Assembly (NCBI GenBank): GCA_023246715.1
Contig: JAHFHZ010000001.1
Span: 48,571 to 112,570 of the forward strand
Direction of reading: 5' to 3'
Source of the DNA: Candidatus Magasanikiibacteriota bacterium
Lineage (GTDB): Bacteria; Patescibacteriota; Patescibacteriia; Magasanikbacterales; GWA2-37-8
Length of the DNA stretch: 64,000 bases
Shown: piece after piece, positions 37,683 through 61,968 of the stretch
Layout: each line of letters starts with the position of its first letter
Position numbering within the stretch: the stretch's first letter is position 1
Program-made: the position numbers and the translations under genes
The notes under the pieces: generated by a model
What the model saw: the letters and a program-made list of their open reading frames with translations, nothing else
What the model was told of the DNA's origin: nothing
Databases searched by the model: none

Positions 37683-37689
37683 TTGCAGT

Positions 37690-37923: not shown

Positions 37924-37925
37924 GT

Positions 37926-38327
37926 ATGCGTTTTCAGGATATCGTTATCGGGAGTGTGTGTCAATTTGAACGCCAAATCAATGTGGATGACGGGCTTTCT
38001 TTTGCCAAGCTCACCGGTGATACCAACCCCTTACATACCAGCGCTGAATTTGCTGAACAGTCGCCTTTTGGGCGAACAATCGTGCACGGCTTGTTGATTG
38101 GTGGTTTGTTTTCTACTTTAGTTGGTGTGCACTGCCCGGGTGATAATTGTTTATATGTCAGCCAGACTTTACAGTTTAAAGCGCCCGTTTTTTATGGAGA
38201 CGTGGTAGTAATTCGCGGCATCGTGACCGATAAGCATGACAGTATTAGCATGGTCCGAATGAAGACAGAAGCCTTGGTGAATGGGGAAGTCAAAGTAACT
38301 GGCGAGGCGGTGGTAAAAGTGCTTTAA
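37926..38327 (+). CDS. MaoC-like (R)-specific hotdog-fold dehydratase
   Basis: FAKLTGDTNPLHTSAEFA...IVHGLL. Confidence 0.7.
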   Translation: MRFQDIVIGSVCQFERQINVDDGLSFAKLTGDTNPLHTSAEFAEQSPFGRTIVHGLLIGGLFSTLVGVHCPGDNCLYVSQTLQFKAPVFYGDVVVIRGIVTDKHDSISMVRMKTEALVNGEVKVTGEAVVKVL

Positions 38328-38339
38328 TTTTTTGAATAT

Positions 38340-39074: not shown

Positions 39075-39100
39075 CTCATTTTGTCACGGGCTTATTTGTT

Positions 39101-46313: not shown

Positions 46314-46376
46314 TTTTATTGACAAAATCCTAAAAAATAGGCTAAAATAAGATCGGTTTCTAAGGCTGTTTTCTTT

Positions 46377-47075: not shown

Positions 47076-47079
47076 TGTT

Positions 47080-47790: not shown

Positions 47791-47796
47791 TTTTTC

Positions 47797-49497
47797 TTGC
47801 ATATGTATATTTTAGGCCTGCATCATGATACCGACACGGGAGCCGTCTTGCTCAAAGACGGTCAGGCTGTTTTTGCTATTAACGAGGAGCGTTTAAGCCG
47901 CGTCAAGTTAGATGAATCTTTTCCCGAACGTAGCATTCAGGCCACCTTGGCGTACGCGGGCATTACGCTTAGCGATATTGACGTGGTGAGCTTTGGCTGG
48001 CATAGCGGATTTCCGTATGAAGAACATTTAACCGGGTATGTTTCGCGTTGCGTGGATATTGCCGAAGGAAGCGCAGAAGCAAAAAAAATTATGCTGGAGC
48101 GGGTGGCGGTGGAAATCAGCCAGGACGTGCCGAAAAAAAGATTCTTTGATGAACAGATGAAGCGTTTGGGATTGACGGCTAAAATGGAATATTTTGACCA
48201 TCATCGCAGCCACGCGTCGTGCGCGTTTTATCCCTCGCCGTTTGACGAAGCGCTCGTGGTAACGCTTGATGCCCGTGGCAATTTTAGGAGCGGAGCCGTT
48301 TTTCACGGTAAAGGTTCGGAAATGAAAGAGATCTCGTGTAATTATTCGTTTGATAGCCTGGGGTTTTTGTACGGACAAATTACGGATTATTTGGGATTCA
48401 AGCCGCACCGGCACGAGGGTAAAATTACTGGTTTGGCCGCTTATGGCGACCCAGAAAAATGTTTGCCGATCATGCGAGAAATGATTAAAGTCAAAGATGG
48501 CAAAATATACGGTGTGATTGGTAAGTACTATAAGCCTTTTTATACGCAACATCTGGTAGCTTTGAAACAGGCCCTGGCCCCGCATTCACGCGAAGATATC
48601 GCGGCGGCCGTGCAACGCCACCTTGAAGATGTTACTTGCGAATATATTGAGTATTACGTTAAAACTACCGGGCTCACCAAAATTGCGGCAGCGGGCGGTG
48701 TGTTTGCCAACGTGAAATTAAACCAGCGAATCCGGGCGATTCCCGGAGTGGAGGATTTGTATGTCTTTCCACAAATGGGAGATGGCGGTTTGGCCATGGG
48801 CGCGGCGCTGTTGAGTTGGCATGCTCGGAGCGCCGAGCGCAAAGCCTTGGCCAACGTTTATTTGGGACCGGAATGGACCAACGGACAGATTGAGGAAGCC
48901 GTGGCCAAGCATACTGGCAAGTTGCAAATTACTCAGTTTGCTTCCAATCAGGAGTGCGCGGGCCGCGTGGTAGAATTGCTCAAAAAAGATTCCATCATCG
49001 GCTTGTTCCAGGGCCGGATGGAGTATGGGCCCAGGGCCTTGGGCAATCGGACTATTTTGTATCACGCCAACGACCGATCGGTGAATGATTGGCTTAATAA
49101 GCGTTTGAACCGGACGGAGTTTATGCCGTTCGCGCCGGTGACTATTAAGGAATTAGCCCCCCGTTGTTTTATGGGCTGGAAACCGGAACACGTTACCACG
49201 ACATTTATGACTGAGTGCTATGATTGCACCGATGAAATGAAGCAGAACGCCCCAGCGGTGGTGCACGTGGACGGCACGGCCCGTCCGCAGATTATTGCTC
49301 GGGAAGATAATCCTTTTTATTACGACGTTATTAAGGGTTGGAACGCGGCTACTGGCGGGCTGTGTTTGATTAACACCAGCTTTAACGAGCACGAGCACCC
49401 AATCGTTTGTTCGATTGATGACGCGTTAAACAGCTTGCTTGGCAACAACGTGGACTGCGTGGTGGCTAATGGCCGGTATCTTATTCAGCCCATTTAA
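47797..49497 (+). CDS. NodU/CmcH-family carbamoyltransferase
   Basis: N-terminus ILGLHHDTDTGAVLL, FDHHRSHASCAF, about 566 aa with a Carbam_trans_N/C layout. Confidence 0.8.
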   Translation: MHMYILGLHHDTDTGAVLLKDGQAVFAINEERLSRVKLDESFPERSIQATLAYAGITLSDIDVVSFGWHSGFPYEEHLTGYVSRCVDIAEGSAEAKKIMLERVAVEISQDVPKKRFFDEQMKRLGLTAKMEYFDHHRSHASCAFYPSPFDEALVVTLDARGNFRSGAVFHGKGSEMKEISCNYSFDSLGFLYGQITDYLGFKPHRHEGKITGLAAYGDPEKCLPIMREMIKVKDGKIYGVIGKYYKPFYTQHLVALKQALAPHSREDIAAAVQRHLEDVTCEYIEYYVKTTGLTKIAAAGGVFANVKLNQRIRAIPGVEDLYVFPQMGDGGLAMGAALLSWHARSAERKALANVYLGPEWTNGQIEEAVAKHTGKLQITQFASNQECAGRVVELLKKDSIIGLFQGRMEYGPRALGNRTILYHANDRSVNDWLNKRLNRTEFMPFAPVTIKELAPRCFMGWKPEHVTTTFMTECYDCTDEMKQNAPAVVHVDGTARPQIIAREDNPFYYDVIKGWNAATGGLCLINTSFNEHEHPIVCSIDDALNSLLGNNVDCVVANGRYLIQPI

Positions 49498-49506
49498 GAT
49501 TACCAT

Positions 49507-50040
49507 ATGCGGCTTAGTGATTTGCGCCCGATGATTCAAACTTCCCGGTTAGGTCTACGCAAATTGACCCTTGAAGACGCCAATGAGCGGTATGTTGGCT
49601 GGTTGAATGACCCTGAGGTAAACGTCTACTTGGAAACGCGAACCGCCACGGTACAGGGTATCCGCGATTATATTGATAAAAAATCAAGTAGCGATACAGC
49701 TTTGCTGCTTGGTATTTATTGGCAACAGAATGATGACTTTATTGGTACGGTGAAACTGGAACCGATTGATTTTGCCACTGGAGTGGCGACAATGGGTATT
49801 TTGATTGGCGATAAAGTTTATTGGGGCAAGGGGGTAGCTACCGAAGTGGTGAATGCTATTACTGAGTATGCTTTTAATAGCTTGGGCCTTTCTGAAGTGA
49901 ATTTAGGGGTACTCGGCGCGAACTTGCCAGCTATCCGGGTCTATGAAAAGTGTGGTTTTGCTACGTATCAAGTTGACAAAAATGCCCGACAACACGGCGA
50001 CGCCACGTACGATCAGGTGTGGATGCGGCGTAACAAATAA
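49507..50040 (+). CDS. GNAT-family N-acetyltransferase (PseH/RimL-like)
   Basis: 177 aa; ...GVATEVVNAITEYAFNSLGLSEVNLGVLGANLPAIRVYEKCGF. Confidence 0.6.
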   Translation: MRLSDLRPMIQTSRLGLRKLTLEDANERYVGWLNDPEVNVYLETRTATVQGIRDYIDKKSSSDTALLLGIYWQQNDDFIGTVKLEPIDFATGVATMGILIGDKVYWGKGVATEVVNAITEYAFNSLGLSEVNLGVLGANLPAIRVYEKCGFATYQVDKNARQHGDATYDQVWMRRNK

Positions 50041-50053
50041 TTTATAAATTAGT

Positions 50054-51037
50054 TTGCTTATGAACTTGGTGGCAAATATATTGCTGGTTGGTTTCGGCTC
50101 TATCGGGCGGCGGCATTATGCCAACCTGCTTGCTTTGGGGCATACTGCAATCAGCGTGGTTGATCCGGATGATTCGCGATTTATCGATCAACCCGGCGTA
50201 CGCCGTTTTAACCAAGAATTAAGCGAACAAAATTTAGCTCAATTTAACATCGTGTTTATTTGTAATCCGACGAGCGCCCATATCCCGGTAGCGCTCCTGG
50301 CCGCCCGGGCGGGCTGTCATTTATTTATTGAGAAGCCATTGTCGCACACGCTGGAGGGTGCCCGGGAGCTTGCCCTGCTCGCCATAAAGCAAAAATTGAT
50401 TACTATGGTTGGCTGCAATCTGCGTTTTGACCCGGCGATTTCTAAAATGAAAGAGCTGTGCGCGGCTGGCGCGGCGGGTAAAATTTTAGCAGTGTATTTG
50501 GAATATGGCCGGTATTTGCCGTATCAACGTCCAACGGTTGATTATAGGACTGTCTATGCTGGTAAAAAAGCGATGGGCGGCGGAGTTTTATTGGATGATA
50601 TCCACGATTTTGATTTATTAACGTGGTTTTCCGACCAGGCGTCGCTTGAAAAGATACAAATCTTTAAAGCCCATGTAAGTAATTTGGAAATTGACGTGGA
50701 AGATATTGCGAACGTGGTGGTGCAGTTTGAAAATGGCATTATCGGGAGCATCCGTTGTGACTATCTGCAACAATATAAACACCGCAATTTAAAGATTATC
50801 GGCGAGAAAGCGAATTTGGTTTGGGAATTCCGCGAGAATAAAATTTGGGGGGAGTACTATGATCAAGGTACGGAGCGTCGTGATTTACTCGCTGCGTTCG
50901 AGCAGGCTGATCCAAATAAAATGTATCAGGACGAACTTAATTATTTTTTAAGCTGTGTTCAAGATAAAAAAGAAACCTTTCATGGCGTGAGCGATGCAGC
51001 GGCCGAAATTGAATCTTTACTTACCGCGAAGCTATGA
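50054..51037 (+). CDS. Gfo/Idh/MocA-family NAD(P) oxidoreductase
   Basis: LLVGFGSIGRRH Rossmann motif; EKPL motif. Confidence 0.75.
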   Translation: MLMNLVANILLVGFGSIGRRHYANLLALGHTAISVVDPDDSRFIDQPGVRRFNQELSEQNLAQFNIVFICNPTSAHIPVALLAARAGCHLFIEKPLSHTLEGARELALLAIKQKLITMVGCNLRFDPAISKMKELCAAGAAGKILAVYLEYGRYLPYQRPTVDYRTVYAGKKAMGGGVLLDDIHDFDLLTWFSDQASLEKIQIFKAHVSNLEIDVEDIANVVVQFENGIIGSIRCDYLQQYKHRNLKIIGEKANLVWEFRENKIWGEYYDQGTERRDLLAAFEQADPNKMYQDELNYFLSCVQDKKETFHGVSDAAAEIESLLTAKL

Positions 51038-51795
51038 CGCTCAATATTTTTATTCAGGCGCGGATGGGTTCCACGCGCTTGCCTGGCAAAATGCTGGCTT
51101 TAATTGCGGATAAAACTGTTCTGCAGGTTTTAGTAGAGCGGTTGCGGCGTGTAAATGGCCGCCCACAGATTATCCTGGCAACGAGCAGCTCGCCCGAGAA
51201 CGATGTTTTAGAGTCAGAAGCGAGGCGTTTGGGAATTGCTGCTTTTCGCGGCGCGGAAGAAAATATTTTAGACCGTTTATACAAGGCCAGCCAAGAATTT
51301 CCTGCGGATTTATTGGCTAGGGTAACTGGTGATTGTCCGTTGATTGATTCCGCGCTTATTGATGAAGGGCGACAAGTTTTGGAGCGAGGCGGCTACGATA
51401 TGGTGAGTAACGTGCGCGTACGCTCTTATCCCGACGGGCTTGATTTTGAATTGTTTAAACCGGCGGCTTTGGAGCGAGCGTGGCAGGCCGAACAGGCTGA
51501 CGAACGCGGAGGAGACGTTTTTATTAATCCCACTCAGTATATTCACCACCAGCCGAATTTTAAGGAGCATGATTTAGTGCATGAACCGAACCTTGGCGAA
51601 TTACGCTTGACGCTCGACCATCCTGAAGACCTGGAAGTCATCCGGCAGGTTTACGCCGGGCTGGCGCACAACGAGGAATTTGGTTTACAGGAGATCGTTG
51701 CTTTCCTGCAGGCAAACCCCCACATTGTAGAACTTAATAAAAAATACGTTCAATTGGATTACGGCTTGAGTCCAGCTGTAGGGGTGACCACTTAA
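51034..51795 (+). CDS. Acylneuraminate/pseudaminate cytidylyltransferase-like (CMP-sugar synthetase)
   Basis: IFIQARMGSTRLPGKML, DCPLID. Confidence 0.7.
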   Translation: MTLNIFIQARMGSTRLPGKMLALIADKTVLQVLVERLRRVNGRPQIILATSSSPENDVLESEARRLGIAAFRGAEENILDRLYKASQEFPADLLARVTGDCPLIDSALIDEGRQVLERGGYDMVSNVRVRSYPDGLDFELFKPAALERAWQAEQADERGGDVFINPTQYIHHQPNFKEHDLVHEPNLGELRLTLDHPEDLEVIRQVYAGLAHNEEFGLQEIVAFLQANPHIVELNKKYVQLDYGLSPAVGVTT

Positions 51796-51811: not shown

Positions 51812-51839
51812 TTGCCTTATTCCCCGGCCGCAGTATAAT
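51812..51839 (+). promoter_or_regulatory. Sigma-70-like promoter candidate: TTGCCT-N16-TATAAT upstream of the first amidotransferase module
   Basis: Read from the sequence, in the 69-bp gap after the cytidylyltransferase. Confidence 0.35.
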
Positions 51840-51864: not shown

Positions 51865-53028
51865 ATGAATACCAGAATTGTCAGTGATTCCAAGGATCTA
51901 ATTCGCTGTTCGCGCTGCGTGATGCCCGAAACCCAGGAGCCGATTATGTTCGACGCCGAGGGGGTTTGTAATACCTGCCGGAATTTAGAAATAAAACAGC
52001 AAAAAATTGACTGGGACGCCCGACTGAAACAGTTTGAGGAAATCATTAATCAATACCGGGGCAAGTACCAGTACGATTGCATTGTCCCATTTAGCGGCGG
52101 CAAGGATTCCACCTATACCGTGTGGGCGCTGGTTAAAAAGTTCGGTTTGAAGCCGTTGGTGGTGCGGTACAACCACCATATGATTCGGCCGCAAACTTTG
52201 CGCAATCAGGAAATGACGATTAAACAGCTTAAGTTGGATTTTTTGGAATATCGCACTGATTGGGATTTGGTAAAAAAATTAATGCGCGTCAGCCTGGACC
52301 GCAAGGGTGATATTTACTGGTACCAACACACTGGCATTTTTTGTTTCCCGATGCACATGGCGATTAAGTTCAACGTACCATTGATTATTTGGGGCGAGCC
52401 CACGGCCGAGTACGCCGCGTATTACCGCTATGATGAAGAAGAAATCGGCGACGAGGAGCGCTTCAATTATTTTATCAATCTCGGAATTACCGCCCAAGAC
52501 ATGATCGGTTTTTTGAATGATCCGACCGTAAAATTAGCTGATCTTTGGGCCCATCAGTTCCCGGCCCGCAAAGATTTACAGGCGATTGAATGTCGCTCAA
52601 TTTGTTTGGGAACCTACACTCCGTGGGATGTAAAGGCGCAGGCCAAGATTATTCAAGACGAACTTGGTTGGAAAGGTGATATGGTAGAAGGGGTGCCACC
52701 GGAGTATAACTACGAAAAAATTGAAGACATGCTACAGGGCGTACAAGATTATCTTAAATATATCAAACGTGGCTATGGTCGCATGAGCCACCTGGCTTCG
52801 ATTGATATTAGGAATGGTCGATTGACCCGCGAAAAGGCAATGCAAATGGTGGAGCAATGGGAAGGCCGCCGCCCCGGGAGCCTTGATGCGTTATTAAAAT
52901 GGCTCAATTTGTCCGAAGTGGAATTTTATGAAATTGCCAATCGGCATCGAGTGAGCCCCTGGAAACACGATTCTTCCCAGACCAAACGCGGCGAATCGCT
53001 CCCAGATCAAAAGGATTGGGTGATTTAA
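51865..53028 (+). CDS. N-acetyl sugar amidotransferase (PP-loop ATPase; WbuX/PseA family)
   Basis: N-terminal Cys4 ribbon (CSRCVMPE...CNTC), PP-loop VPFSGGKDSTY. Confidence 0.8.
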   Translation: MNTRIVSDSKDLIRCSRCVMPETQEPIMFDAEGVCNTCRNLEIKQQKIDWDARLKQFEEIINQYRGKYQYDCIVPFSGGKDSTYTVWALVKKFGLKPLVVRYNHHMIRPQTLRNQEMTIKQLKLDFLEYRTDWDLVKKLMRVSLDRKGDIYWYQHTGIFCFPMHMAIKFNVPLIIWGEPTAEYAAYYRYDEEEIGDEERFNYFINLGITAQDMIGFLNDPTVKLADLWAHQFPARKDLQAIECRSICLGTYTPWDVKAQAKIIQDELGWKGDMVEGVPPEYNYEKIEDMLQGVQDYLKYIKRGYGRMSHLASIDIRNGRLTREKAMQMVEQWEGRRPGSLDALLKWLNLSEVEFYEIANRHRVSPWKHDSSQTKRGESLPDQKDWVI

Positions 53029-53035
53029 AACTCGT

Positions 53036-53659
53036 ATGATCGTAGTGGTTGACTACGGCATGGGAAATTTGGGTTCGATTGCGAAAGCCCTGGAGTATGT
53101 CGGGGGTGAAGTACTCGTAACCAACGACCCTGCCCGTGTGGCACAAGCCGATAAATTAGTGCTCCCCGGAATGGGCGCTTTTCAGGATGGCATGAAACAT
53201 CTGGAGGAGCGTGGTTTGGTGCCCCTGTTGACCGATTTGGTGTTGAACCAAAAAAAACCATTTTTGGGGATTTGTTTAGGCATGCAGCTTTTGGCTAAAC
53301 GCGGTTTTGAATGGGGCGAATACCCCGGTTTGGGTTGGATTGACGCCGAGGTGGTTCGATTTGAAGTTGATAAAATCAAGGGATTAAGCGTGCCCCACGT
53401 GGGATGGAATGATTTAACTTTGACGCGGAGCACGCCGTTATTTGCTGGCTTGGAGAATGGGGCGGATGTTTATTTCGTGCATAGCTATCATTTGGCGTGC
53501 CGTGAACCGAAGTTGGTGACTGCTACATTTGAATACGGCGATACTTTTACCGCCGCTTTAATGCAGGAGAATATTTTTGCCACGCAATTTCACCCAGAAA
53601 AAAGTCAACGTGATGGACTGACGATGCTCAAGAATTTTTTATCTTGGCAACCCCAGTGA
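53036..53659 (+). CDS. hisH: HisH-like class I glutamine amidotransferase (WbuY-like)
   Basis: MIVVVDYGMGNLGS, GICLGMQLL (catalytic Cys), HS...FHPEKS. Confidence 0.85.
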   Translation: MIVVVDYGMGNLGSIAKALEYVGGEVLVTNDPARVAQADKLVLPGMGAFQDGMKHLEERGLVPLLTDLVLNQKKPFLGICLGMQLLAKRGFEWGEYPGLGWIDAEVVRFEVDKIKGLSVPHVGWNDLTLTRSTPLFAGLENGADVYFVHSYHLACREPKLVTATFEYGDTFTAALMQENIFATQFHPEKSQRDGLTMLKNFLSWQPQ

Positions 53660-53660
53660 T

Positions 53661-54416
53661 ATGTTGAAACAGCGCATTATCCCGATGCTACTACTCTATA
53701 AAGGGAGAATGGTTAAGACCGTTCAATTTGCCGAGTATCGTGATGTTGGCAACCCCGTCACCACCGCGCGTGTTTTCCAGGCGCAACGAGCCGACGAATT
53801 GCTCTTCCTGGATATTTCTGCTAGCATCGAAGATCGGGGGATACTTTTTGATATCGTTAAAGAGGTCTCCGGTGAATGTTTCATGCCTTTGGGCGTTGGC
53901 GGCGGCCTGCGTACTTTGGAGGATATTCGCGCGATTTTGGAAAAAGGCGCGGATAAGGTAATTATTAATACCGCGGCAGTGGAACATCCCGGCTTTATAG
54001 AAGACGCGGCGCGACGATTCGGCAGTTCCACGATTGTAGTTTCGATTGATACGAAAAAAAGGAACGACGGGACTTACGAAGTGTATACGCGCCGGGCGAC
54101 CAACGCTACCGGGCTTGATCCGGTTGCCTGGGCCGTTGAAGCCGCGCGGCGCGGCGCGGGGGAAATTATTATTACCCGGGCTGATTTGGACGGGACGATG
54201 CAGGGATTGGATATTGGACTCATTACGAAAGTTGTCCAATCCGTGAACGTGCCCGTGGTGGCTTCGGGTGGGGTGGGATCGCTCGATGATTTTCGCAACG
54301 CTTTTCAGGCTGGAGTATCAGGAGTAGGCGCGGGGAGCATTTTTCACTTTACCGATCAGAGCATTGTTAAAACCAGAAAATATTTATGTAATGCCGGGAT
54401 TAATGTACGGCCTTAA
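53661..54416 (+). CDS. hisF: HisF-like cyclase/ammonia-channel subunit (WbuZ-like)
   Basis: RIIPMLL..G..VKTVQF, DELLFLDISAS, VGGGLRTLEDI. Confidence 0.85.
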   Translation: MLKQRIIPMLLLYKGRMVKTVQFAEYRDVGNPVTTARVFQAQRADELLFLDISASIEDRGILFDIVKEVSGECFMPLGVGGGLRTLEDIRAILEKGADKVIINTAAVEHPGFIEDAARRFGSSTIVVSIDTKKRNDGTYEVYTRRATNATGLDPVAWAVEAARRGAGEIIITRADLDGTMQGLDIGLITKVVQSVNVPVVASGGVGSLDDFRNAFQAGVSGVGAGSIFHFTDQSIVKTRKYLCNAGINVRP

Positions 54417-54428
54417 TAATAGGGATGT

Positions 54429-55481
54429 ATGATTAAAGACATTCGCCTGGGTAATCGCGTGCTGGGGTTGGAACAACCGGTTTTTATTTCGGCCGAAGTA
54501 GGCACTACCTGCAACGGTGATTTTGAAACTGCTAAAAAATTAATCAAAGCCGCCAAAGATGCTGGCATGGACGCAGTAAAATTCCAAATTCTTGACCCGC
54601 TTGATAAATACAGCGACCATTCGCTCACTTATACCTATAAGCGGTTCAACGGCGAAGAAGTAACTGAAAATTTTATTGAGATGCTTAAAAAGTACGTGCA
54701 ACCCAAAGAAAATTGGCGGGCGCTAAAGGAATACGCCGATGAGTTGGGAATTATTATGTTTGCCACCCCCGACCATATGGCGGCGGTGGATCTGATGGAA
54801 GAATTGGGGATGCCCGCCTATAAAGTGGCCACTTGGGACGTAACCTGGTATCCATTTTTACGCAAAATTGCTTGTACCAAAAAACCAGTTGTTTTGGACT
54901 TTGGCGCTTCGGATAAAGAAGAAATTGCCCGGATTTTGAAAATTTTTGAAGAAGAAGGCAATGACCAATTGATTTTACTGCATTGCTACCATACCAATGA
55001 TTTTGCCCAAATGAACATCCGCACCGTGGAATATTTGCGTGAAGCGTTTGGCCACCTGAGCGGCTATTCGGCAGATGACGCGAATCATGATTTAGATTTT
55101 ATGTCACTCCCATATCGCCCGGTGTATATTGAAAAGCGTTTGACACTGAACCGTGAGGACCCTAACCATCATCATGGTAAGGCCGCGCAGCCAGAAGAAA
55201 TGGTGGCTTACGTACAGCGTATTCATGAATTGAGTAAAGCGCGTGGAGTGTTTGATGTGCGCCCGACTGAAGGAGATTTGCGCGATAAATTTAAGTATTT
55301 CCGCCGAATTGTGGTTTATCGCGACCTTAAAGCAGGTGAAACGTTGACGGAAGAAAACACGATGTGCAAGCGTCCATTGCAAGGCGGGGTCGACCCACAG
55401 TATTTGCCTTTATTTTTGGGGCGTACGGTTAAACGGGCGATGAAGGAAAACGAACCAGTCCAATGGGTTGACTTGGAATAA
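54429..55481 (+). CDS. NeuB/PseI/LegI-family nonulosonic acid synthase
   Basis: PVFISAEVGTTCNGDFETAKKLIKAAKDAGMDAVKFQ; C-terminal SAF-like domain. Confidence 0.8.
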   Translation: MIKDIRLGNRVLGLEQPVFISAEVGTTCNGDFETAKKLIKAAKDAGMDAVKFQILDPLDKYSDHSLTYTYKRFNGEEVTENFIEMLKKYVQPKENWRALKEYADELGIIMFATPDHMAAVDLMEELGMPAYKVATWDVTWYPFLRKIACTKKPVVLDFGASDKEEIARILKIFEEEGNDQLILLHCYHTNDFAQMNIRTVEYLREAFGHLSGYSADDANHDLDFMSLPYRPVYIEKRLTLNREDPNHHHGKAAQPEEMVAYVQRIHELSKARGVFDVRPTEGDLRDKFKYFRRIVVYRDLKAGETLTEENTMCKRPLQGGVDPQYLPLFLGRTVKRAMKENEPVQWVDLE

Positions 55482-55490
55482 TTTTCATTT

Positions 55491-56732
55491 ATGAATTACT
55501 GCCAACGCTGCTGTTATCCGGCCAATGCAAAACCTACGATTGCTTTTGACGATCAAGGAGTTTGCAGCGGGTGCCGATTGCACGACGCGCGCAAGCAAAT
55601 TGATTGGAAAGAGCGCGAAACGTGGTTCCGGGAAATTATGGAAAAATATAAAGCCGAAGGCAAAAAGCGCGGCAATATTTATGACTGCGTGATCGCGGTC
55701 TCGGGTGGCAAAGACAGTTTCTATCAAGCGTGGTTGGCTAAACAATACGGCATGAATCCGCTTTTGGTGACGTTTAACCATACGTTTAATACCAAAGTAG
55801 GGATTTATAATTTGCAAACGATGGTCAAAAGCCTGAATCTGGACTTGTTGCGCTTTACCCCGAACGAAGAATCAGTGCGCAAAATTTCGCGCCATATGGT
55901 GAAGACGGTGGGTGACTGCGATTGGCATTCGCATGCTGGCATTATGACTTTCCCCATTCGCGTGGCCGTGCAATACAACACCCCGTTGATTATCTGGGGT
56001 GAACACGGGTTTGCGGACCAGACGGGTATGTTCAACCAAAATGACATGGTGGAATTCACCAAGAAAACTCGCCGCGAACACAGCATGCGCGGTTTTGAGC
56101 CTGAGGATTTGGTGGGGCATGAAGGGCTGGCTGAAAAAGATTTAGGACCGTACCATTATCCATCGGACGAAGAAATTGAGCGCGTTGGTTTGCGCGGTAT
56201 TTACATCAGTAATTACTTTTTCTGGAATGGCAAAGCCCAGGCGGAATTTTTGATTAAGAATTTTAATTTCCGTACGGCCGCGCAGAAGGACCGAACGTAT
56301 AATATTTACGACAAAATTGATGGGTTCCATCAATGCGGCACGCATGATTATTTGAAATACCTGAAGTTTGGATATGGTCGGGCGACTGATGACGCTAGTA
56401 TGGATATCCGCCATGGTCGGATGACCCGCGAAGAGGGGATTGAAATGGTACAAAAATACGATCATGTTCGGCCAACCGATTTGGATGTATACCTGAAGTG
56501 GGTGGGACTAAGCGAGGCAGAATTAATGGGCGTGGTGGATACCATGCGCGACCAGAAAATTTGGCAGAAAGACGCTGCTCACAAATGGCAGATAACTGAT
56601 TCAATTGGTAATCATATCAATGATCCTGGAGCGCAAACGGCGAAATTACCGCTTGATGGAGATCGCGGTGGTTATACCGCGAATCTACCCCCGTATTATT
56701 GGGAGCGTGATGATCAATATATTATTTTGTAG
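55491..56732 (+). CDS. N-acetyl sugar amidotransferase (second paralogue; PP-loop ATPase)
   Basis: CQRCCYPA...CSGC zinc ribbon, VSGGKDSFY PP-loop. Confidence 0.8.
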   Translation: MNYCQRCCYPANAKPTIAFDDQGVCSGCRLHDARKQIDWKERETWFREIMEKYKAEGKKRGNIYDCVIAVSGGKDSFYQAWLAKQYGMNPLLVTFNHTFNTKVGIYNLQTMVKSLNLDLLRFTPNEESVRKISRHMVKTVGDCDWHSHAGIMTFPIRVAVQYNTPLIIWGEHGFADQTGMFNQNDMVEFTKKTRREHSMRGFEPEDLVGHEGLAEKDLGPYHYPSDEEIERVGLRGIYISNYFFWNGKAQAEFLIKNFNFRTAAQKDRTYNIYDKIDGFHQCGTHDYLKYLKFGYGRATDDASMDIRHGRMTREEGIEMVQKYDHVRPTDLDVYLKWVGLSEAELMGVVDTMRDQKIWQKDAAHKWQITDSIGNHINDPGAQTAKLPLDGDRGGYTANLPPYYWERDDQYIIL

Positions 56733-56753
56733 TGGGTTAGTAAGCTGTCGGTT

Positions 56754-57389
56754 ATGATCGGCATTGTAAATTATCAGGCCAATAATTTGCGCTCAGTTGC
56801 CAACGCTCTTAAGGCGATTGGCGCTGAATTTTTTATTGCCGATGAACCAGCTCGCTTGGCCAAGGCAACGGCTATTGTGCTGCCTGGCGTGGGCGCTTTT
56901 AGCGACAGTATGACCAATTTGAGGCGTCTGGGCTTTATCGAGCCCCTGCAACAGGCGGTGCGCGTTGAAAAAAAACCGGTGTTAGGCCTCTGTCTGGGGA
57001 TGCAGTTGATGGCAGAAAAAAGTTTTGAATTTGGCGAGCATGAAGGTTTGGGTTGGTTACAAGGAACAGTAGAAAAAATTGAGCCAAACGATCAGTCGTT
57101 CAGGGTGCCGCACATGGGTTGGAATAATTTGGAACATATTTCGCCCGCCAGCATGCTGTTGCAGAGTATCGTGCAGCCAGCGGTAGTTTATTTTGTGCAT
57201 AGTTATTATTTTAAACCGGTCGCTGGAGCGGAAGCGGTAGTAACTTCAACTGTTTCACACGGACTCACCCTTACAGCTACGGTGGAAAAAGATTATATTT
57301 TTGGTTGTCAGTTCCATCCCGAAAAAAGCCAGCAAGCCGGTTTGCTGATTTTGCAAAATTTTGTTGAATATACCAAACAACATGCTTAA
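56754..57389 (+). CDS. hisH: HisH-like glutamine amidotransferase (second copy)
   Basis: MIGIVNYQANNLRS, GLCLGMQLM, FHPEKS. Confidence 0.85.
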   Translation: MIGIVNYQANNLRSVANALKAIGAEFFIADEPARLAKATAIVLPGVGAFSDSMTNLRRLGFIEPLQQAVRVEKKPVLGLCLGMQLMAEKSFEFGEHEGLGWLQGTVEKIEPNDQSFRVPHMGWNNLEHISPASMLLQSIVQPAVVYFVHSYYFKPVAGAEAVVTSTVSHGLTLTATVEKDYIFGCQFHPEKSQQAGLLILQNFVEYTKQHA

Positions 57390-58188
57390 GAAGCGTTTGA
57401 TTAGCTGCCTGCTGTGGCGGGAAGGCACGCTGGTTCAATCCCGACAATTCCAGCATACTAATTCGGTTGGAGATGCCCTGACAGCGGTTGATTTTTTTAA
57501 TACCTGGGCGATTGACGAGATCGTGCTGCTGGACGTTAGTCGCACTCCGAAACATCGAGCGTTGTTTCACGAACATTTACGCGAATTGTCGGAACGTTGC
57601 TTTGTTCCCTTGGCGGTGGGTGGCTGGGTAACTACCCTTGCGGAAATTCGACAGTTACTTTCCGAAGGGGCGGACAAAGTGGTGGTTAATACGGCCGCAG
57701 TCCGAGATCCAAATTTTATTACGATGGCTTCTGAATCTTTTGGCGCTCAATGTATTGTTGTTTCAATTGATGCCAAGAAAAATACAACTGGCGAGTATGA
57801 GGTATTTGTTAATCGAGGGAAGGATGCTGCCGGAATGCGGCCTGATCAATTAGCAAAAGTTTCCGAAGAACGGGGAGCTGGGGAAGTTTTTATTACTTCG
57901 ATTGATCATGATGGCAGGCAAGCCGGCTATGATATGGAGCTAGTTCGTTTGGTGCGACAGGCGACCAGCGTGCCGGTGGTTGCTTCGGGCGGGGTGGGTG
58001 AATGGTCGCACCTAGCCGAGGCAATTATCGAAGGCGGGGCTGATGCGGTTTCGGCGGCAAATATTTTTCATTATTCGGATCAAAGTACCAAAAAAGCCAA
58101 AGATTATTTGAAGTTAGTAGGGATTGACGTTCGCGAACCGGAATTTTATAAGATTTTATTACCACGCAAGCCGGTTTATAGGGTATAA
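57382..58188 (+). CDS. hisF: HisF-like cyclase subunit (second copy)
   Basis: MLKKRLISCLLWREG; VGGWVTTLAEI. The start overlaps the hisH stop (ATGCTTAA). Confidence 0.8.
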   Translation: MLKKRLISCLLWREGTLVQSRQFQHTNSVGDALTAVDFFNTWAIDEIVLLDVSRTPKHRALFHEHLRELSERCFVPLAVGGWVTTLAEIRQLLSEGADKVVVNTAAVRDPNFITMASESFGAQCIVVSIDAKKNTTGEYEVFVNRGKDAAGMRPDQLAKVSEERGAGEVFITSIDHDGRQAGYDMELVRLVRQATSVPVVASGGVGEWSHLAEAIIEGGADAVSAANIFHYSDQSTKKAKDYLKLVGIDVREPEFYKILLPRKPVYRV

Positions 58189-58197
58189 TCAGTTCTT

Positions 58198-60504
58198 ATG
58201 TTATTCGAACAGCTTAATCAGGGTTCGTGCCGGGCATATTTGATTGGCGACGAAAAGTCACGCCAAGCTATTTTGATTGATCCTCGACTGGAATTTGTGC
58301 CGAACTATCTTGTTTATTTGGAAAAAAATGGGCTAAAACTTACTCATGTCATTGATACACACACCCACGCCGACCATATTTCGGGGGCGACGCTCCTGGC
58401 TAAAGAAAATGGCGCCAGCTATTTAATGCATCGCGCTTCACCGGTGAGTACGCTCGCGGAGCGAATTGAAGATGGTTTTACCCTTGAGCTGGGCCAGATT
58501 AAAGTGTCGGCGCTCTATACCCCGGGGCACAGTAAAGATTCCGTGTCCATTTTGGTGCCGGGAAAAATTTTAACGGGTGATGCTTTATTTTTAGATGACG
58601 GCGGCGCGGGCCGCGATGACTTATACGGTGGTGATTCAGGCGAACATTGGGAAAGCTTGCAGCGTTTGGGCGCGCTCGATGAACGATTGTTGGTTTTGCC
58701 AGGCCACGAGTATCGCGGGTACGCGCCTTCGACCCTGGCCCAACAAAAACGAACTAATCCAATGTTGCGTTACGAAAATAAACAATCATATGTTGATTTT
58801 ACTCATAACACTTTGTATGGCGCGGCTGACTGGATGAAACCGATTGTGGCGGCCAACATCGCGGGTGTAACCGAAGCCTTGGCAGAGCCGCTGGGAGCAG
58901 ACACGGCTTGTGAAGTCATGGCTTGCGAACCAATGAGCCCGTGCGAGCCTGTTAAGGGAGCTGTCAGTTTTGCGGGCGCGGTATTGAGTGTGCCCCAGCT
59001 GCTCGAGAAATTAAACAGCACCGAGCCGCCAATAGTATTAGACGTGCGGGAAGAACACGAATTGTTAGGGGAGCTGGGTAGACTGGATAATATTATTCAC
59101 ATTCCCGTTGGTGAATTGACGGCGCGTTTGAGTGAACTTGTTGAATACAAACACCGCGAATTGATCGTGGTTTGCCGCACCAGCAACCGATCACTTAAAG
59201 CAGGGGGTATACTCTCTCGCGCTGGATTTATCAAGGTGGGGGTTTTAGCCGGTGGCATGCATGCGTATCGAGGGGTGGAAAATTCATCCTCGTGGATGGT
59301 TGATCAACCAATTTATTTGGATCACGCCGCAACGACATACCTTGATCCGCGGGTGAAAGCCGTAATGGAACCTTTTTGGGAAACTGATTTTGGTAATCCT
59401 TCAAGCACTTACAGTCTTGGTCGCCGCTCCAACGATTCTGTTGAAACCGCGCGGGCCAGAATTGCTGAATTGCTTAAGGTCGAAGCACAGGAAATTATTT
59501 TTACCGCTGGGGGAACAGAAAGCATTAATTTGGCTATTTTTGGAGTAGTCGAAAGACTTATTGCGCAGGATTCTAAACCTCATATTATTACCTCTGCCAT
59601 TGAACATAGCGCGGTACTTAAAAGTGTTGAAGCGCTGCAACGCCGGGGGTGCGCGGTGACGATTTTGTCGGTTGACCGGGAAGGATTTATTGATTTGCGG
59701 CAACTCGAGCAGGCAATTACCCCGGCGACGACTTTGGTATCAATTATGTATGCTAATAACGAGATTGGCACTGTTCAACCAATCGCGCAGATTGGAAAAT
59801 TATTACGTAAAATAAACGAAACACGTGAACCGAAAAAATTACCCCGTATTTTATTTCATAGTGATGCTTGTCAGGGAGCCGGCGCTTTGAGTATTGATGT
59901 GCAAAAACTTGGCGTTGATTTATTGACAATTAATGGAAGCAAGCTCTACGGGCCTAAGCAGACCGGCTTATTGTATTGCCGAACGGGAGTAGCTCTGACG
60001 CCGATTATATATGGTGGTGGCCAGGAGCATAGTTTAAGAAGTGGAACGGAAAACGTCCCGGGCATTGTTGGTTTGGCAAAAGCTCTGGAGCTTGCCCAAC
60101 AAGAAAGCGAGGCGGAAAACTATCGTTTGCGTGAACTGCGCCAGTTCGGGTTTGATTGGCTAAAGAAGGAAGTCCCCGAGATGTTGGTGAACGGCGCAGA
60201 GGAAGACTCTGCGTCTGAGCTCCGGCGGTTACCAAATAATATTAATGTTTCTTTTCTAGGGGTTAATGGTGAAAATTTGCTGGTGTATTTAGACCGGCAT
60301 GGTATCTGCGTTTCAACTGGCAGCGCTTGTTCGGCAAAGCATACTGGAGCGTCGCATGTGTTAACCGCTATTGCCTGCCCGCCTGATTATATTAATGGCA
60401 GTTTGCGTATCACGCTTGGTAAAAGGACCAACAAAAACCAATTACAAAAAGCACTTATGGTTGTCGCAGACGGCGTTCGGCGGCAACGAGAAAAGCGAGT
60501 TTAA
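58198..60504 (+). CDS. Tri-domain fusion: MBL-fold persulfide dioxygenase/glyoxalase II-like + rhodanese + class V cysteine desulfurase (NifS/IscS-like)
   Basis: DTHTHADH, TPGHS, TGDALF (MBL); CRTSNRS (rhodanese Cys loop); IYLDHAATTYLDP...SGTENV and a 768-aa length (desulfurase). Confidence 0.75.
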   Translation: MLFEQLNQGSCRAYLIGDEKSRQAILIDPRLEFVPNYLVYLEKNGLKLTHVIDTHTHADHISGATLLAKENGASYLMHRASPVSTLAERIEDGFTLELGQIKVSALYTPGHSKDSVSILVPGKILTGDALFLDDGGAGRDDLYGGDSGEHWESLQRLGALDERLLVLPGHEYRGYAPSTLAQQKRTNPMLRYENKQSYVDFTHNTLYGAADWMKPIVAANIAGVTEALAEPLGADTACEVMACEPMSPCEPVKGAVSFAGAVLSVPQLLEKLNSTEPPIVLDVREEHELLGELGRLDNIIHIPVGELTARLSELVEYKHRELIVVCRTSNRSLKAGGILSRAGFIKVGVLAGGMHAYRGVENSSSWMVDQPIYLDHAATTYLDPRVKAVMEPFWETDFGNPSSTYSLGRRSNDSVETARARIAELLKVEAQEIIFTAGGTESINLAIFGVVERLIAQDSKPHIITSAIEHSAVLKSVEALQRRGCAVTILSVDREGFIDLRQLEQAITPATTLVSIMYANNEIGTVQPIAQIGKLLRKINETREPKKLPRILFHSDACQGAGALSIDVQKLGVDLLTINGSKLYGPKQTGLLYCRTGVALTPIIYGGGQEHSLRSGTENVPGIVGLAKALELAQQESEAENYRLRELRQFGFDWLKKEVPEMLVNGAEEDSASELRRLPNNINVSFLGVNGENLLVYLDRHGICVSTGSACSAKHTGASHVLTAIACPPDYINGSLRITLGKRTNKNQLQKALMVVADGVRRQREKRV

Positions 60505-60515
60505 TTTTTTCTAAA

Positions 60516-60552
60516 TAAAAAAGAGCTGGTTATTTTCAGCTTCTTTTTTTAT
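60516..60552. terminator. Bidirectional rho-independent terminator candidate (A-tract, imperfect GAGCTG/CAGCTtC stem, T-tract) between convergent genes
   Basis: Sequence aaaaaagagctggttattttcagcttcttttttt. Confidence 0.4.
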
Positions 60553-60746
60553 TTTCCACGCGTATTAGCAGCCGAAGCCAGCGCGAGCAGCATGGACGCC
60601 ACGGCCAGAACCGGGTGCCATGGTCCCACGCCGTTGAGCCATTCAAGGATGTCGCCGCCGCTGATCAGCATCCAGCCGAACCAACCAGCTAGGACGAGTC
60701 CGCCAGCTAGTCGGAGGACCTGTAGTAGTGCTGTGCTTTTTTTCAT
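60549..60746 (-). CDS. Small hypothetical membrane protein (65 aa, 2 TM)
   Basis: Hydrophobic ORF flanked by a terminator and an upstream intergenic region. No homology recognised. Confidence 0.3.
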   Translation of the reverse strand: MKKSTALLQVLRLAGGLVLAGWFGWMLISGGDILEWLNGVGPWHPVLAVASMLLALASAANTRGK

Positions 60747-60882: not shown

Positions 60883-61968
60883 ATGAAGTCTTTCTGTATT
60901 CCTACTCCTCAGGGCGGTTTGCGCCACATTGGGCCAGGCCAGCCCTGTTTTATTATCGCCGAAATGTCCGGAAATCATCACCATGATTATGATAAAGCCG
61001 TAGAAATTATTAAAGCGGCCAAGGCGGCTGGCGCCGACGCGATTAAAATTCAGACCTACACCCCGGATACTATGACGATTGATTGCGATAAGCCGTGGTT
61101 TATGGTGAAAGGCAAAGATCAGCCCGAATTGTGGCAGGGGCAGAAGCTCTATGATTTATACCAGACTGCTTATACGCCGTGGGAATGGGACGCTAAACTG
61201 CAGAAAGTCGCGGAAGCCGAAGGATTGATTTTTTTCTCCACCCCGTTCGATCCGTCCGCGGTTGATTTTTTGGAACCGCTTAATCCACCTTGTTATAAAA
61301 TTTCTTCGTACGAAGCAACCGACTTTACCCTGCTCCGACGCGTGGCGCAGACCGGCAAGCCGGTTATACTGTCGGTTGGATTCGCGGAGCGTGACGAGGT
61401 TGATTTTGCAATTGAAACCCTCCGTAAATATGGCGCGAAGGATATTGGCATTCTGCACTGCGTCACCGCCTATTCGGACAAGCCCGAAATTGATGAAACG
61501 AATATGCTGACAATGCTTGATATCCGCGACCGCTACGACGTGGTGTGCGGTTTTTCGGATAATAACGCCGGAATTGAAATTCCGACTGTAGCCGCCATGG
61601 CGGGAGCTTCGATTGTTGAAAAGCATTTTATGATTGAGCGCCAGGAAGGCGGGCCGGACGCGCGGTTTTCGATTGAACCCAGTGAGTTTGAAAAAATGGT
61701 CCAAAGCATTCGACGCGCGGAGCGAATTATGGGAAAGGTTAATTACGGCTGCCAGAGTGATAAGGAACGGGAAAATACTTTTTTTCGCCGATCGTTGTTT
61801 GTGGTGGAGGATATTAAAAAAGGAGAAAAGTTTACCTCGCGTAACGTACGCTCAATCCGGCCTTCCAAGGGGATGGAGACTAAGTACTATGATGAGGTGA
61901 TTGGCCAAAGCGCGGCAGAGGATATTGAACGCGGCACGCCATTTGTTTGGGAGTTGATTCAAAAATAG
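60883..61968 (+). CDS. NeuB/PseI/LegI-family nonulosonic acid synthase (second copy)
   Basis: CFIIAEMSGNHHHDYDKAVEIIKAAKAAGADAIKIQ; C-terminal SAF domain (...GEKFTSRNVRSIRP). Confidence 0.8.
   Translation: MKSFCIPTPQGGLRHIGPGQPCFIIAEMSGNHHHDYDKAVEIIKAAKAAGADAIKIQTYTPDTMTIDCDKPWFMVKGKDQPELWQGQKLYDLYQTAYTPWEWDAKLQKVAEAEGLIFFSTPFDPSAVDFLEPLNPPCYKISSYEATDFTLLRRVAQTGKPVILSVGFAERDEVDFAIETLRKYGAKDIGILHCVTAYSDKPEIDETNMLTMLDIRDRYDVVCGFSDNNAGIEIPTVAAMAGASIVEKHFMIERQEGGPDARFSIEPSEFEKMVQSIRRAERIMGKVNYGCQSDKERENTFFRRSLFVVEDIKKGEKFTSRNVRSIRPSKGMETKYYDEVIGQSAAEDIERGTPFVWELIQK

Follow-up and report, generated by a model that had tools for sequence, protein, structure and literature searches.

Two diverged WbuX-HisH-HisF trios in tandem in a pseudaminic acid-type locus of a Magasanikiibacteriota genome

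Introduction

Campylobacter jejuni encodes, at its flagellar glycosylation locus, two amidine synthases of the WbuX family that are both dedicated to nonulosonates. We take PseA to be Cj1316c, the HisH/HisF-like proteins encoded beside pseA and pseI to be Cj1315c/Cj1314c, and PtmG to be Cj1324; to our knowledge, C. jejuni has only one HisH/HisF pair. PseA leads to CMP-Pse5Ac7Am and PtmG to CMP-Leg5Am7Ac (PMC13317340). The locus described here likewise has two enzymes of this family, but whereas those of C. jejuni serve separate, complete pseudaminic acid (Pse) and legionaminic acid (Leg) pathways, here each WbuX has a cognate HisH and HisF, the cluster is a single one of Pse type, and a noncanonical NeuB is attached to it.

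Within the family, a structure has been solved only for the Legionella pneumophila N-acetyl sugar amidotransferase LpNASAT (PDB 8WEX), which presumably forms the 5-acetamidino group of legionaminic acid. This enzyme was described without an activity assay and has a PP-loop Rossmann-like fold with a tetracysteine zinc site (PMC10607449). Fold and zinc site are conserved in the two enzymes of our locus, WbuX1 and WbuX2, but LpNASAT has 468 aa, occurs as a single copy and is a distant relative (150 bits to WbuX2, 109 bits to WbuX1).

Other members of the WbuX family modify hexosamines (E. coli O145, P. aeruginosa) or, in M. maripaludis, a uronic acid. The WbuX/WbuY/WbuZ system of E. coli O145 (L-FucNAm) has the same three-protein architecture as the trios studied here, and its WbuZ carries Leu at the Asp11 position (MLRPRIIPCLLIHD); unlike them, its lone trio serves a hexosamine pathway, with fnlA-wbjC-wecB as neighbors. 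The AglX/AglY/AglZ trio of M. maripaludis is reportedly required to form the acetamidino group on a sugar of the ManNAc3NAmA type. We take AglX/AglY/AglZ and the P. aeruginosa WbpG/HisH2/HisF2 to be genetically defined trios that define the NCBIfam AglZ/HisF2 family. In both, as proposed here, a trio is required for an acetamidino group, but the substrate is a 2,3-diacetamido uronic acid, and the single trio has no NeuB paralog.

Results

Two trios in tandem

We analyzed a 64-kb stretch of DNA, referred to as the window herein, by open reading frames and profile HMMs. It contains two WbuX-HisH-HisF trios, tandem and codirectional, at 51865-54416 (trio 1) and 55491-58188 (trio 2), with HisH and then HisF directly 3′ of each WbuX. 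The features of the region are as follows.

44383-45369, plus strand: PseB, inverting UDP-GlcNAc 4,6-dehydratase, entry enzyme of a Pse-type pathway (TIGR03589, 452 bits; cut-off 408)
49507-50040, plus strand: PseH-like GNAT
50054-51037, plus strand: GFO/IDH/MocA oxidoreductase
51034-51795, plus strand: CMP-sugar cytidylyltransferase-like gene
51812-51839, plus strand: promoter-like site just 5′ of WbuX1, TTGCCT-16-TATAAT, a consensus match only (10/12)
51865-53028, plus strand: WbuX1, PP-loop N-acetyl sugar amidotransferase, 387 aa, rarer X1-type clade
53036-53659, plus strand: HisH1, class-I glutaminase subunit (WbuY-like), 207 aa (TIGR01855, 237 bits; cut-off 105)
53661-54416, plus strand: HisF1, HisF-like ammonia-channel barrel (WbuZ/AglZ-like), 251 aa
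54429-55481, plus strand: noncanonical NeuB-family paralog, TIM barrel and SAF domain, 350 aa (PF03102, 2.5e-49; PF08666, 6e-8)
55491-56732, plus strand: WbuX2, PP-loop N-acetyl sugar amidotransferase, 413 aa, common X2-type clade
56754-57389, plus strand: HisH2, class-I glutaminase subunit, 211 aa (TIGR01855, 217 bits)
57382-58188, plus strand: HisF2, HisF-like ammonia-channel barrel, 268 aa
58198-60504, plus strand: fusion of metallo-beta-lactamase, rhodanese and NifS/IscS-type cysteine desulfurase, 768 aa (Lactamase_B, Rhodanese, Aminotran_5)
60523-60542, T-runs on both strands: terminator-like hairpin closing the trio operon
60883-61968, plus strand: PseI, canonical-family pseudaminic acid synthase, 361 aa (TIGR03586, 429.9 bits; cut-off 340.25)

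For HisF2, gene callers use the ATG at 57382, and the longest open reading frame opens with a TTG at 57361. The promoter-like site is a candidate for the start of a transcription unit that possibly spans 51865-60504.

A preliminary description of this DNA had placed a four-gene set, trio plus NeuB, twice in succession at 51865-55481 and 55491-58188. Both trios are real; the second range, however, has only the three trio genes and lacks a NeuB. Next after HisF2 comes the fusion at 58198-60504, and the second NeuB-family gene, PseI, lies beyond the terminator-like hairpin and a small minus-strand open reading frame.

All six trio genes are full length with intact catalytic motifs, so neither copy is pseudogenized. 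At the protein level, the paralogs share 34% (WbuX, E 6e-73), 43% (HisH, 1e-62) and 44% (HisF, 2e-72) identity. At the DNA level, we found only 20-50 nt patches of 72-82% identity and no nucleotide repeat. Together, these values exclude both chance likeness and a recent duplication, the latter in agreement with the preliminary description. By sequence, both trios are old, intact copies of the predicted three-protein machinery that converts N-acetyl to acetamidino groups.

WbuX, HisH and HisF

WbuX1 and WbuX2 scored 343.3 and 357.6 bits against TIGR03573 (cut-off 203.2) over nearly the full length of the model, and the SGGKDS PP-loop and the N-terminal four-Cys zinc motif are invariant between them. 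The conversion of a sugar N-acetyl to an acetamidino group is the chemistry that this family membership would predict. The two match each other with 221 bits and Legionella 8WEX with 109 bits (WbuX1) and 150 bits (WbuX2, E 6e-43), and they match E. coli O145 WbuX with 69 and 78 bits at 23-24% identity. Since each is nearer to the other and to 8WEX than to the FucNAm enzyme, both are probably of the nonulosonate type.

HisH1 has the GICLGMQ Cys and the FHPEKS His/Glu, and the triad motifs are also present in HisH2. Both exceed the TIGR01855 cut-off, a model that cannot tell WbuY from HisH. WbuZ is the best NCBIfam match of each HisF protein, at 286.4 (HisF1) and 271.5 bits (HisF2), slightly below the TIGR03572 cut-off of 299.7; a second acetamidino-HisF profile, NF038364, has a cut-off of 310. 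Against the hisF equivalog TIGR00735 they reach 255.4 and 241.8 bits, both below its cut-off of 294.55. In both proteins the cyclase Asp11 is replaced by Leu, while the gate residues R5/E46/K99/E167 are kept, as is D130; we take the roles of these residues in cyclase catalysis and ammonia gating from T. maritima HisF. E. coli O145 WbuZ shows the same pattern of lost Asp11 and kept gate, as do ∼100 other HisF proteins linked to WbuX. With Asp11 lost and the gate retained, neither HisF copy is a histidine-pathway gene, and no hisA/B/C/D/G/I was found among open reading frames of at least 150 aa in the 64-kb window. This agrees with the early view that the HisH and HisF genes stand outside histidine biosynthesis, and together with the TIGR03573 scores it favors the predicted WbuX/WbuY/WbuZ-type acetamidino systems named there.

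A noncanonical NeuB paralog belongs with trio 2

The gene between the trios (54429-55481) has the TIM barrel, SAF domain and PEP-binding lysines of canonical NeuB/PseI/LegI (PDB 1XUZ, 8H2C) but differs from them in its metal site and scores. It missed both equivalog cut-offs, with 196.4 bits against TIGR03569 (399.65) and 178.1 bits against TIGR03586 (340.25). Both canonical metal-binding histidines, presumably equivalent to NmNeuB His215 (SDH) and His236 (E[KR]H) with roles assumed from 1XUZ, are replaced (SDH to SAD, EKH to EKR), and three more active-site positions are altered (NH to TC, E134 to D, STG to DFG). The lysines (VKFQ, AYKV) and the SAF-domain Arg are retained. The SAD(D) and EKR replacements are conserved over ∼50 subfamily clusters, and the paralog falls in an exclusive clade of 54 sequences that is always linked to WbuX trios and has the active-site changes in common.

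Among 85 related WbuX loci, gathered by similarity to WbuX1/2 so that their frequencies are biased, WbuX2-type trios are common and usually lie at most ∼2 kb from this NeuB clade. Close relatives with a single trio have the order CMP-transferase - NeuB-like - WbuX2 - HisH - HisF. NeuB-like, WbuX2-type, HisH and HisF thus form a conserved four-gene module, and we assign the paralog to trio 2 on this basis. The order GFO - CMP-transferase - NeuB-like - WbuX2 is likewise kept in loci L041 and L088, and from the CMP-transferase onward in L043. Moreover, 35 single-trio loci contain X2 together with both a noncanonical and a canonical NeuB, so the number of synthases is independent of the number of trios. 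These comparisons do not support the initial picture of two full modules, each with its own nonulosonate synthase.

PseI, the fusion gene and pathway neighbors

PseI matched PDB 8H2C with an E value of 9e-81. It has EKH, and its first metal-ligand motif reads SDN instead of SDH, as also in L078 and L088. The fusion gene opens 10 bp past HisF2 and has intact HxHxDH, CRTSNR and SGSAC motifs. Only four fusions of this domain make-up were found in a search of 5.8 billion proteins, and the closest relatives are found among housekeeping genes (Rrf2 regulator, CTP synthase, ribosomal protein L9, IF-2). None of the 85 other WbuX loci has a NifS, rhodanese or fusion homolog, and the nearest relative locus, L043, carries other genes at this position. 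The fusion is probably a passenger sulfur-mobilization gene outside the amidination system.

No PseC adjoins PseB in the window, which also encodes an RmlD-like reductase (after PseB), a PIG-L deacetylase, a formyltransferase and a NodU-like carbamoyltransferase. With no PseC beside PseB and with these extra tailoring genes, the island may make a sugar or sugars other than Pse5Ac7Ac, and perhaps several nonulosonates.

Recurrence of the X1 and X2 pairing

In a neighbor-joining tree of WbuX proteins, from which C. jejuni sequences were left out, an X1 clade (44-71% identity) is separate from a large X2 clade, and the HisF partners have co-evolved with these orthologous groups, tracking WbuX type in 16/16 X1 and 59/59 X2 cases; HisF1 falls with the former set and HisF2 with the latter. 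WbuX1-type trios are rare. They adjoin a WbuX2-type trio within complete pseudaminic acid clusters of 13 species-representative genomes from ∼5 phyla, including Bacteroidota, Thermodesulfobacteriota/Desulfobacterota, Alphaproteobacteria and Myxococcota. In two further loci, L006 (Magasanikbacteria) and L016 (Gemmatimonadota), an X1-type gene is paired with a more divergent WbuX. Outside candidate-phyla-radiation (CPR) genomes, an X1 trio is nearly always accompanied by an X2-type trio; in CPR loci with X1 only, such as L005, the trio lies directly between GNAT and PseI. A PseH-like GNAT of the window's type occurs in 15/18 X1 loci versus 6/67 others.

The cultured Hwanghaeella grinnelliae has the order PseB-PseC-X1-HisH-HisF-GNAT-NeuB(EKT)-PseF-GFO-HisH-HisF-X2-PseG-PseI, which is one complete Pse pathway carrying both trios. 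Complete double-trio loci such as L076 have a single PseB/PseC/PseH/PseG/PseF set. The X2-only locus L032 has a formyltransferase in the place of PseH and no detected GNAT, which would leave the N5 acetyl as the likely target of X2.

Discussion

We lean cautiously toward two functional, non-redundant amidine-forming complexes that act in a Pse-type pathway at different sites or on different intermediates. In each complex, HisH would hydrolyze glutamine to ammonia, the HisF-like barrel, lacking the cyclase Asp11, would act as an ammonia conduit only, and the WbuX/PseA-type PP-loop enzyme would use ATP to activate the carbonyl of a sugar N-acetyl group; ammonia would then displace the carbonyl oxygen to give a positively charged acetamidino group. 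Both complexes would work with the island's PseB, PseH-like GNAT, CMP-transferase and PseI, trio 1 being the rarer accessory set that usually sits beside a particular PseH-like GNAT. WbuX2 might modify the N5 acetamido group and WbuX1 the N7 acetamido group installed by the GNAT, and the product would be a doubly amidinated Pse derivative or else a mix of forms that each bear one amidino group. The preliminary description had offered either two amidinated nonulosonates or one doubly amidinated sugar, and both are compatible with our data. Gene neighborhood, from which we draw these site assignments, hints only weakly at them, and the co-occurrence of GNAT and X1 may reflect an inherited cassette rather than functional coupling. 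We regard amidination of a single sugar at both N5 and N7 as tentative and less likely than the existence of two distinct complexes. No nonulosonate with two amidino groups turned up in our searches of the literature, so double amidination is either new or not what is made.

Two nonulosonic acids, each amidinated once, with WbuX2 paired to the NeuB-like protein and WbuX1 to canonical PseI, are a possible but doubtful outcome. The window does have two NeuB-family genes, which fit two products equally well; trio 2 and the NeuB-like gene form a tight module, X1-only CPR loci place their trio between GNAT and PseI, and the extra tailoring enzymes could diversify intermediates. C. jejuni, where PseA serves Pse and PtmG serves Leg, provides a precedent (PMC13317340). 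However, the 35 single-trio loci already hold both synthase types, complete double-trio loci such as L076 have one set of Pse genes, and the synthase activity of a paralog without one or both metal-binding histidines is itself putative. It is improbable that one trio, parked by the Pse genes, serves another sugar of the island, either a FucNAm/QuiNAm-like 2-acetamidino-2,6-dideoxyhexose or a ManNAc3NAmA-type uronic acid. The action of WbuX-family enzymes on hexosamines and a uronic acid speaks for such a role, as do the many sugar pathways of the island, in which the RmlD-like reductase after PseB could yield a 6-deoxy-L-hexosamine. Yet both enzymes are far nearer to one another and to the Legionella nonulosonate enzyme than to that of O145, and in unrelated phyla X1 and X2 are repeatedly found together in compact clusters that otherwise contain Pse genes only.

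That the trios are redundant isoenzymes with one substrate and site, kept for dosage or differential regulation, seems very unlikely. They share family, domain set and operon, but they have diverged deeply (to 34% identity for WbuX), the X1 and X2 groups remain separate in all the phyla sampled and keep co-evolving HisF partners of their own, and the pairing is of one X1 with one X2, never two of one type. We give still less credence to the idea that the fusion supplies the trio 2 PP-loop enzyme with sulfur, so that a thioacetamido or thioimidate sugar would form instead of or en route to the amidine. PP-loop ATPases with a cysteine desulfurase and a rhodanese are standard thiolation machinery (ThiI/MnmA/TtcA), and the fusion apparently shares the transcription unit of trio 2. 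Against this, the 85 other WbuX loci have no such genes, the relatives of the fusion are in housekeeping contexts, L043 has other genes in its place, and an intact glutaminase and ammonia channel are already part of trio 2.

Returning to the two-complex reading, we raise as a speculation that the double trio, which this genome shares with at least 13 other species, might make an undescribed N5,N7-diacetamidino Pse-type sugar, with the linked NeuB clade as its dedicated synthase or partner. If so, this clade, with its rebuilt metal site (N to T, E to D, S to D, H to T/R), is the component that would handle the positively charged amidino intermediate. The X1 and X2 pairing recurs in the pseudaminic acid clusters of many unrelated bacteria, so the island may make an as yet undescribed sugar variant.

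Two probable acetamidino-forming trios in one gene run

Both trios of the island, each a WbuX-type amidotransferase with a HisH-like and a HisF-like partner, lie within a long co-directional gene run. The relevant part is laid out as follows.

Genes and features around the two trios
44383-45369: PseB (TIGR03589, 452 bits, above cut-off)
between PseB and the GNAT (44383-49497 including PseB): RmlD-like reductase, then formyltransferase, PIG-L deacetylase and NodU-like carbamoyltransferase
49507-50040: PseH-like GNAT
between the GNAT and the CMP-transferase gene: GFO/IDH/MocA oxidoreductase
51034-51795: CMP-sugar cytidylyltransferase-like gene
51865-54416: WbuX1, HisH1, HisF1 (trio 1)
54429-55481: NeuB-family gene
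55491-58188: WbuX2, HisH2, HisF2 (trio 2)
58198-60504: metallo-beta-lactamase, rhodanese and NifS-type cysteine desulfurase fusion, 768 aa
60523-60542: terminator-like hairpin
60549-60746, minus strand: 65-aa ORF between the terminator and PseI; gene callers find the same ORF on two other contigs
60883-61968: PseI (430 bits against a cut-off of 340)

The preliminary description had reported a four-gene set, a trio plus a NeuB-family synthase, occurring twice. The trios themselves are real: with 343 and 358 bits, both WbuX proteins exceed the curated 203-bit threshold of TIGR03573. Each carries an SGGKDS PP-loop and a four-cysteine zinc motif, features described for the Legionella enzyme (PMC10607449), and HisH1 and HisH2 keep their Cys/His/Glu motifs. 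With full-length ORFs, and with the WbuX PP-loop and Cys4 motif, the HisH triad and the HisF gate residues present in both copies, pseudogenes can be dismissed. The four-gene count did not hold for the second set: 55491-58188 comprises three genes, the next gene is the sulfur-enzyme fusion, and the second NeuB-family gene lies 2.7 kb beyond, in an apparently separate transcription unit. A rule of one NeuB per trio was likewise ruled out by 85 comparative loci. The preliminary observation is therefore confirmed in part, and its interpretation supported in part.

Between copies, protein identity is 34% for WbuX (E = 6e-73), 43% for HisH (1e-62) and 44% for HisF (2e-72), and no nucleotide repeat longer than 50 nt is shared. 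The trios are thus old paralogues, as originally proposed. A recent duplication is excluded, since nucleotide repeats never extend beyond 50 nt at 76% identity.

The HisF-like proteins resemble WbuZ

When we aligned both HisF copies to Thermus HisF (PDB 1KA9), Leu occupied the position of the cyclase catalytic Asp11 in each, with Asp130 and the four ammonia-gate residues R5, E46, K99 and E167 kept. The same pattern of a lost Asp11 and a retained gate was found in about 100 WbuX-adjacent HisF-like genes of other genomes and in E. coli O145 WbuZ. Both proteins score below the hisF equivalog cut-off, with WbuZ as the best score, just short of its own cut-off, and we found no other his gene among the ORFs of at least 150 aa in the window. 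Together, these observations favor the WbuZ reading, so that the earlier statement that HisH and HisF are not histidine-pathway genes came through the refutation test proposed for it. A histidine-pathway HisF is out on the loss of Asp11 and the sub-cut-off score.

A NeuB-like gene with an altered metal site

The NeuB paralogue between the trios (54429-55481) falls well short of the equivalog thresholds for NeuB and PseI. Alignment to N. meningitidis NeuB and C. jejuni PseI revealed that both metal-binding histidines are substituted (SDH to SAD and EKH to EKR) and that the NH, STG and E134 positions are also altered; the PEP-binding lysines are retained. These substitutions are conserved across about 50 database clusters, mainly from Patescibacteria. 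Judged from its sequence, the protein is not a standard synthase.

Related loci hold a second form, in which EKH has become EKT. All 54 non-canonical sequences fall into one exclusive clade with a common signature (N to T, E to D, S to D, and H to T or R). For 49 X2-type genes (the WbuX2 clade), a non-canonical NeuB is found no more than 10 kb away; the median gap is 1.9 kb, in most cases occupied by HisH and HisF alone.

The EKT-type proteins carry the motifs FEAGPTH...LDTGN...IHQCPS...SDH...EKT and are widespread in Proteobacteria, Verrucomicrobiota, Nitrospinota, archaea and others. Their genes sit directly upstream of HisH-HisF-WbuX2 in Pse clusters (loci L011-L079; for example 7486-8565 in L032, Methylophilus aquaticus, and 7172-8248 in L076, Hwanghaeella grinnelliae). 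For the one tested, that of H. grinnelliae, no NCBIfam model passed its cut-off. A NeuB paralogue in L005 (19306-20307) has an intermediate signature, with T, D, S, H and H at the five diagnostic positions, and branches immediately next to the non-canonical clade but not within it; it could represent a transitional form.

PseI of the window (60883-61968) is otherwise canonical, with its first metal-binding His replaced by Asn (SDH to SDN). SDN also occurs in L078 and L088 and SEN in L005 and L043; the variants group into a small clade, with members from CPR and archaeal loci. Taken with the changes in the NeuB paralogue, both NeuB-family proteins of the window therefore have non-standard metal sites.

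Two WbuX lineages recur together across phyla

A scan of one genome per species with a WbuX1 and WbuX2 alignment yielded 80 loci, to which protein look-ups added five. We analyzed these by tblastn and by trees run in Python; the WbuX tree was built without the C. jejuni PseA and PtmG and P. aeruginosa WbpG sequences. The WbuX2 clade is large (about 420-436 aa, 50-64% identity), and most loci have a member of it, generally in a single trio. The WbuX1 clade is small (44-71% identity), and outside three CPR loci its members almost always have a second WbuX with its own HisH and HisF within a few kb. This second WbuX is X2-type in 13 loci, from Flavobacteria, Thermodesulfobacteriota, Desulfovibrionaceae, several Alphaproteobacteria, Myxococcota and others; in two more, L006 (Magasanikbacteria) and L016 (Gemmatimonadota), X1 is accompanied by a more divergent WbuX. 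For instance, the cultured H. grinnelliae has the order PseB-PseC-X1-HisH-HisF-GNAT-NeuB(EKT)-PseF-GFO-HisH-HisF-X2-PseG-PseI, a single complete Pse pathway accompanied by both trios. The M. aquaticus cluster is a typical single-trio arrangement (PseB-PseC-NeuB(EKT)-HisH-HisF-X2-PseF-PseG-formyltransferase-PseI).

HisF tracks the WbuX type without exception (16 of 16 and 59 of 59), in keeping with a specific interface through which WbuX and HisF would dock. HisH shows no such discrimination in X2-type trios, and X1-adjacent HisH is nearer HisH1 in 18 of 19 cases. In the close relatives L041, L043 and L088, the order is CMP-transferase, NeuB-like gene, X2, HisH and HisF, with trio 1 absent; a GFO oxidoreductase precedes the CMP-transferase in L041 and L088. 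This order implies that the NeuB-like gene of the window belongs with trio 2, and trio 1 looks like an insertion between it and the CMP-transferase gene.

Possible substrates and sites of action

From family chemistry, both complexes would hydrolyze glutamine, channel the ammonia, activate the acetamido carbonyl with ATP and form the amidine. WbuX1 and WbuX2 match each other at 221 bits and the Legionella legionaminic-acid enzyme at 109 and 150 bits, against 69 and 78 bits for the E. coli O145 FucNAm enzyme (from NZ_CP006027.1). That they are much nearer to each other and to the Legionella enzyme than to that of O145 argues that both act on nonulosonate-pathway substrates. A FucNAm-type assignment is disfavored, as the O145 WbuX is only 23-24% identical.

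The lineages have remained separate, with a cognate channel protein for each, and are paired one-plus-one in clusters with a single Pse enzyme set, which suggests that the two trios act at different N-acyl positions. A particular PseH-like GNAT stands alongside X1 trios in 15 of 18 loci, against 6 of 67 others. In at least one X2-only cluster, a formyltransferase stands at the place of PseH, and the N5 acetyl would then be the likely group for X2 to act on. A Pfam scan of the ORF upstream of PseI in 30 loci, weakly informative on the X2 site, gave 15 GNATs (8 also matching a PseG-type glycosyltransferase domain) and 5 formyltransferases. These are weak hints that X1 acts at N7 and X2 at N5, which could yield a Pse derivative with two amidino groups. 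In the literature searched, we found no description of a doubly amidinated nonulosonate (Pse5Am7Am, Leg5Am7Am or diacetamidino forms). The main rival, plausible in itself, is that the two NeuB-family enzymes lead to two singly amidinated products; it draws on the extra tailoring genes of the window and the lack of a PseC next to PseB.

Sulfur supply to WbuX2 by the adjacent fusion would be another role to consider. Its active-site motifs are intact: HxHxDH (metallo-beta-lactamase), CRTSNR (rhodanese) and SGSAC (NifS/IscS-type cysteine desulfurase). No homologue occurs in any other WbuX locus of the comparative set, and its relatives reside in housekeeping contexts, next to an Rrf2 regulator, a Pyr_redox_2 gene, CTP synthase and ribosomal protein L9, or IF-2, making such a supply very improbable. 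Full-length fusions of this architecture numbered only four in a search of 5.8 billion proteins. We treat the gene as a passenger at the operon end; it may serve this lineage as a self-contained enzyme for persulfide handling.

Other features of the island

The window as a whole is an island of glycan-biosynthesis genes, with GT4 and GT2 glycosyltransferases, PMT_2 membrane transferases, two AsnB-like amidotransferases, sugar dehydratases/epimerases and a flippase. Nearly all genes are on the plus strand across 1-64000, with GC skew positive throughout and GC at 43-49%; the nearest relatives are mostly Patescibacteria/CPR metagenome-assembled genomes, so that an uncultured bacterium of this group is the probable host. 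PseB, with PseC not adjacent, is followed by the RmlD-like reductase, formyltransferase, PIG-L-type deacetylase and NodU-like carbamoyltransferase. PseB, an RmlD-like gene and a carbamoyltransferase are also combined in L006, L052 and L068, which hints at a 4-reduced and/or carbamoylated, re-acylated pathway branch. The AsnB-type genes (GATase_7 plus Asn_synthase; 12109-13977 and 19141-21030) are each closely trailed by a small transferase (methyltransferase or GT2) and a PMT_2 membrane-protein gene, in differing order and strand; the pair may amidate uronic acids, giving an unusually nitrogen-rich glycan island. At 35871-40579, an FkbH-like N-terminal-domain protein, a short-chain dehydrogenase and an MBOAT membrane acyltransferase are grouped and may form a glyceryl or acyl decoration module.

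Relation to known systems and significance

To our knowledge, the WbuX-type systems studied so far are single ones only, and in the literature surveyed we found no report of in vitro reconstitution. Those of E. coli O145, P. aeruginosa and M. maripaludis are single trios with other sugars as substrates. The nearest precedent is C. jejuni, in which PseA leads to Pse5Ac7Am and PtmG to Leg5Am7Ac (PMC13317340, PMC11040635), each enzyme there belonging to a pathway of its own. Three features appear to be undescribed: duplicated cognate trios inside a single Pse cluster, the cross-phylum recurrence of the double trio, and a linked NeuB clade with an altered metal site. The annotation labels 'NeuB' and 'HisF/HisH' are misleading in such loci.

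With an acetamidino group in place of a neutral N-acetyl, a surface sugar carries a permanent positive charge, which alters cell-surface charge, antigenicity, and phage or lectin recognition. The predictions are testable in cultured hosts: H. grinnelliae Gri0909 carries the double trio, and M. aquaticus VKM B-3159 a single trio together with the NeuB paralogue. WbuX comprises at least two ancient lineages that have each co-evolved with a HisF-like channel of their own. The lineages occur together in Pse clusters across phyla, and the common one is tied to an uncharacterized NeuB clade with a rebuilt metal site.
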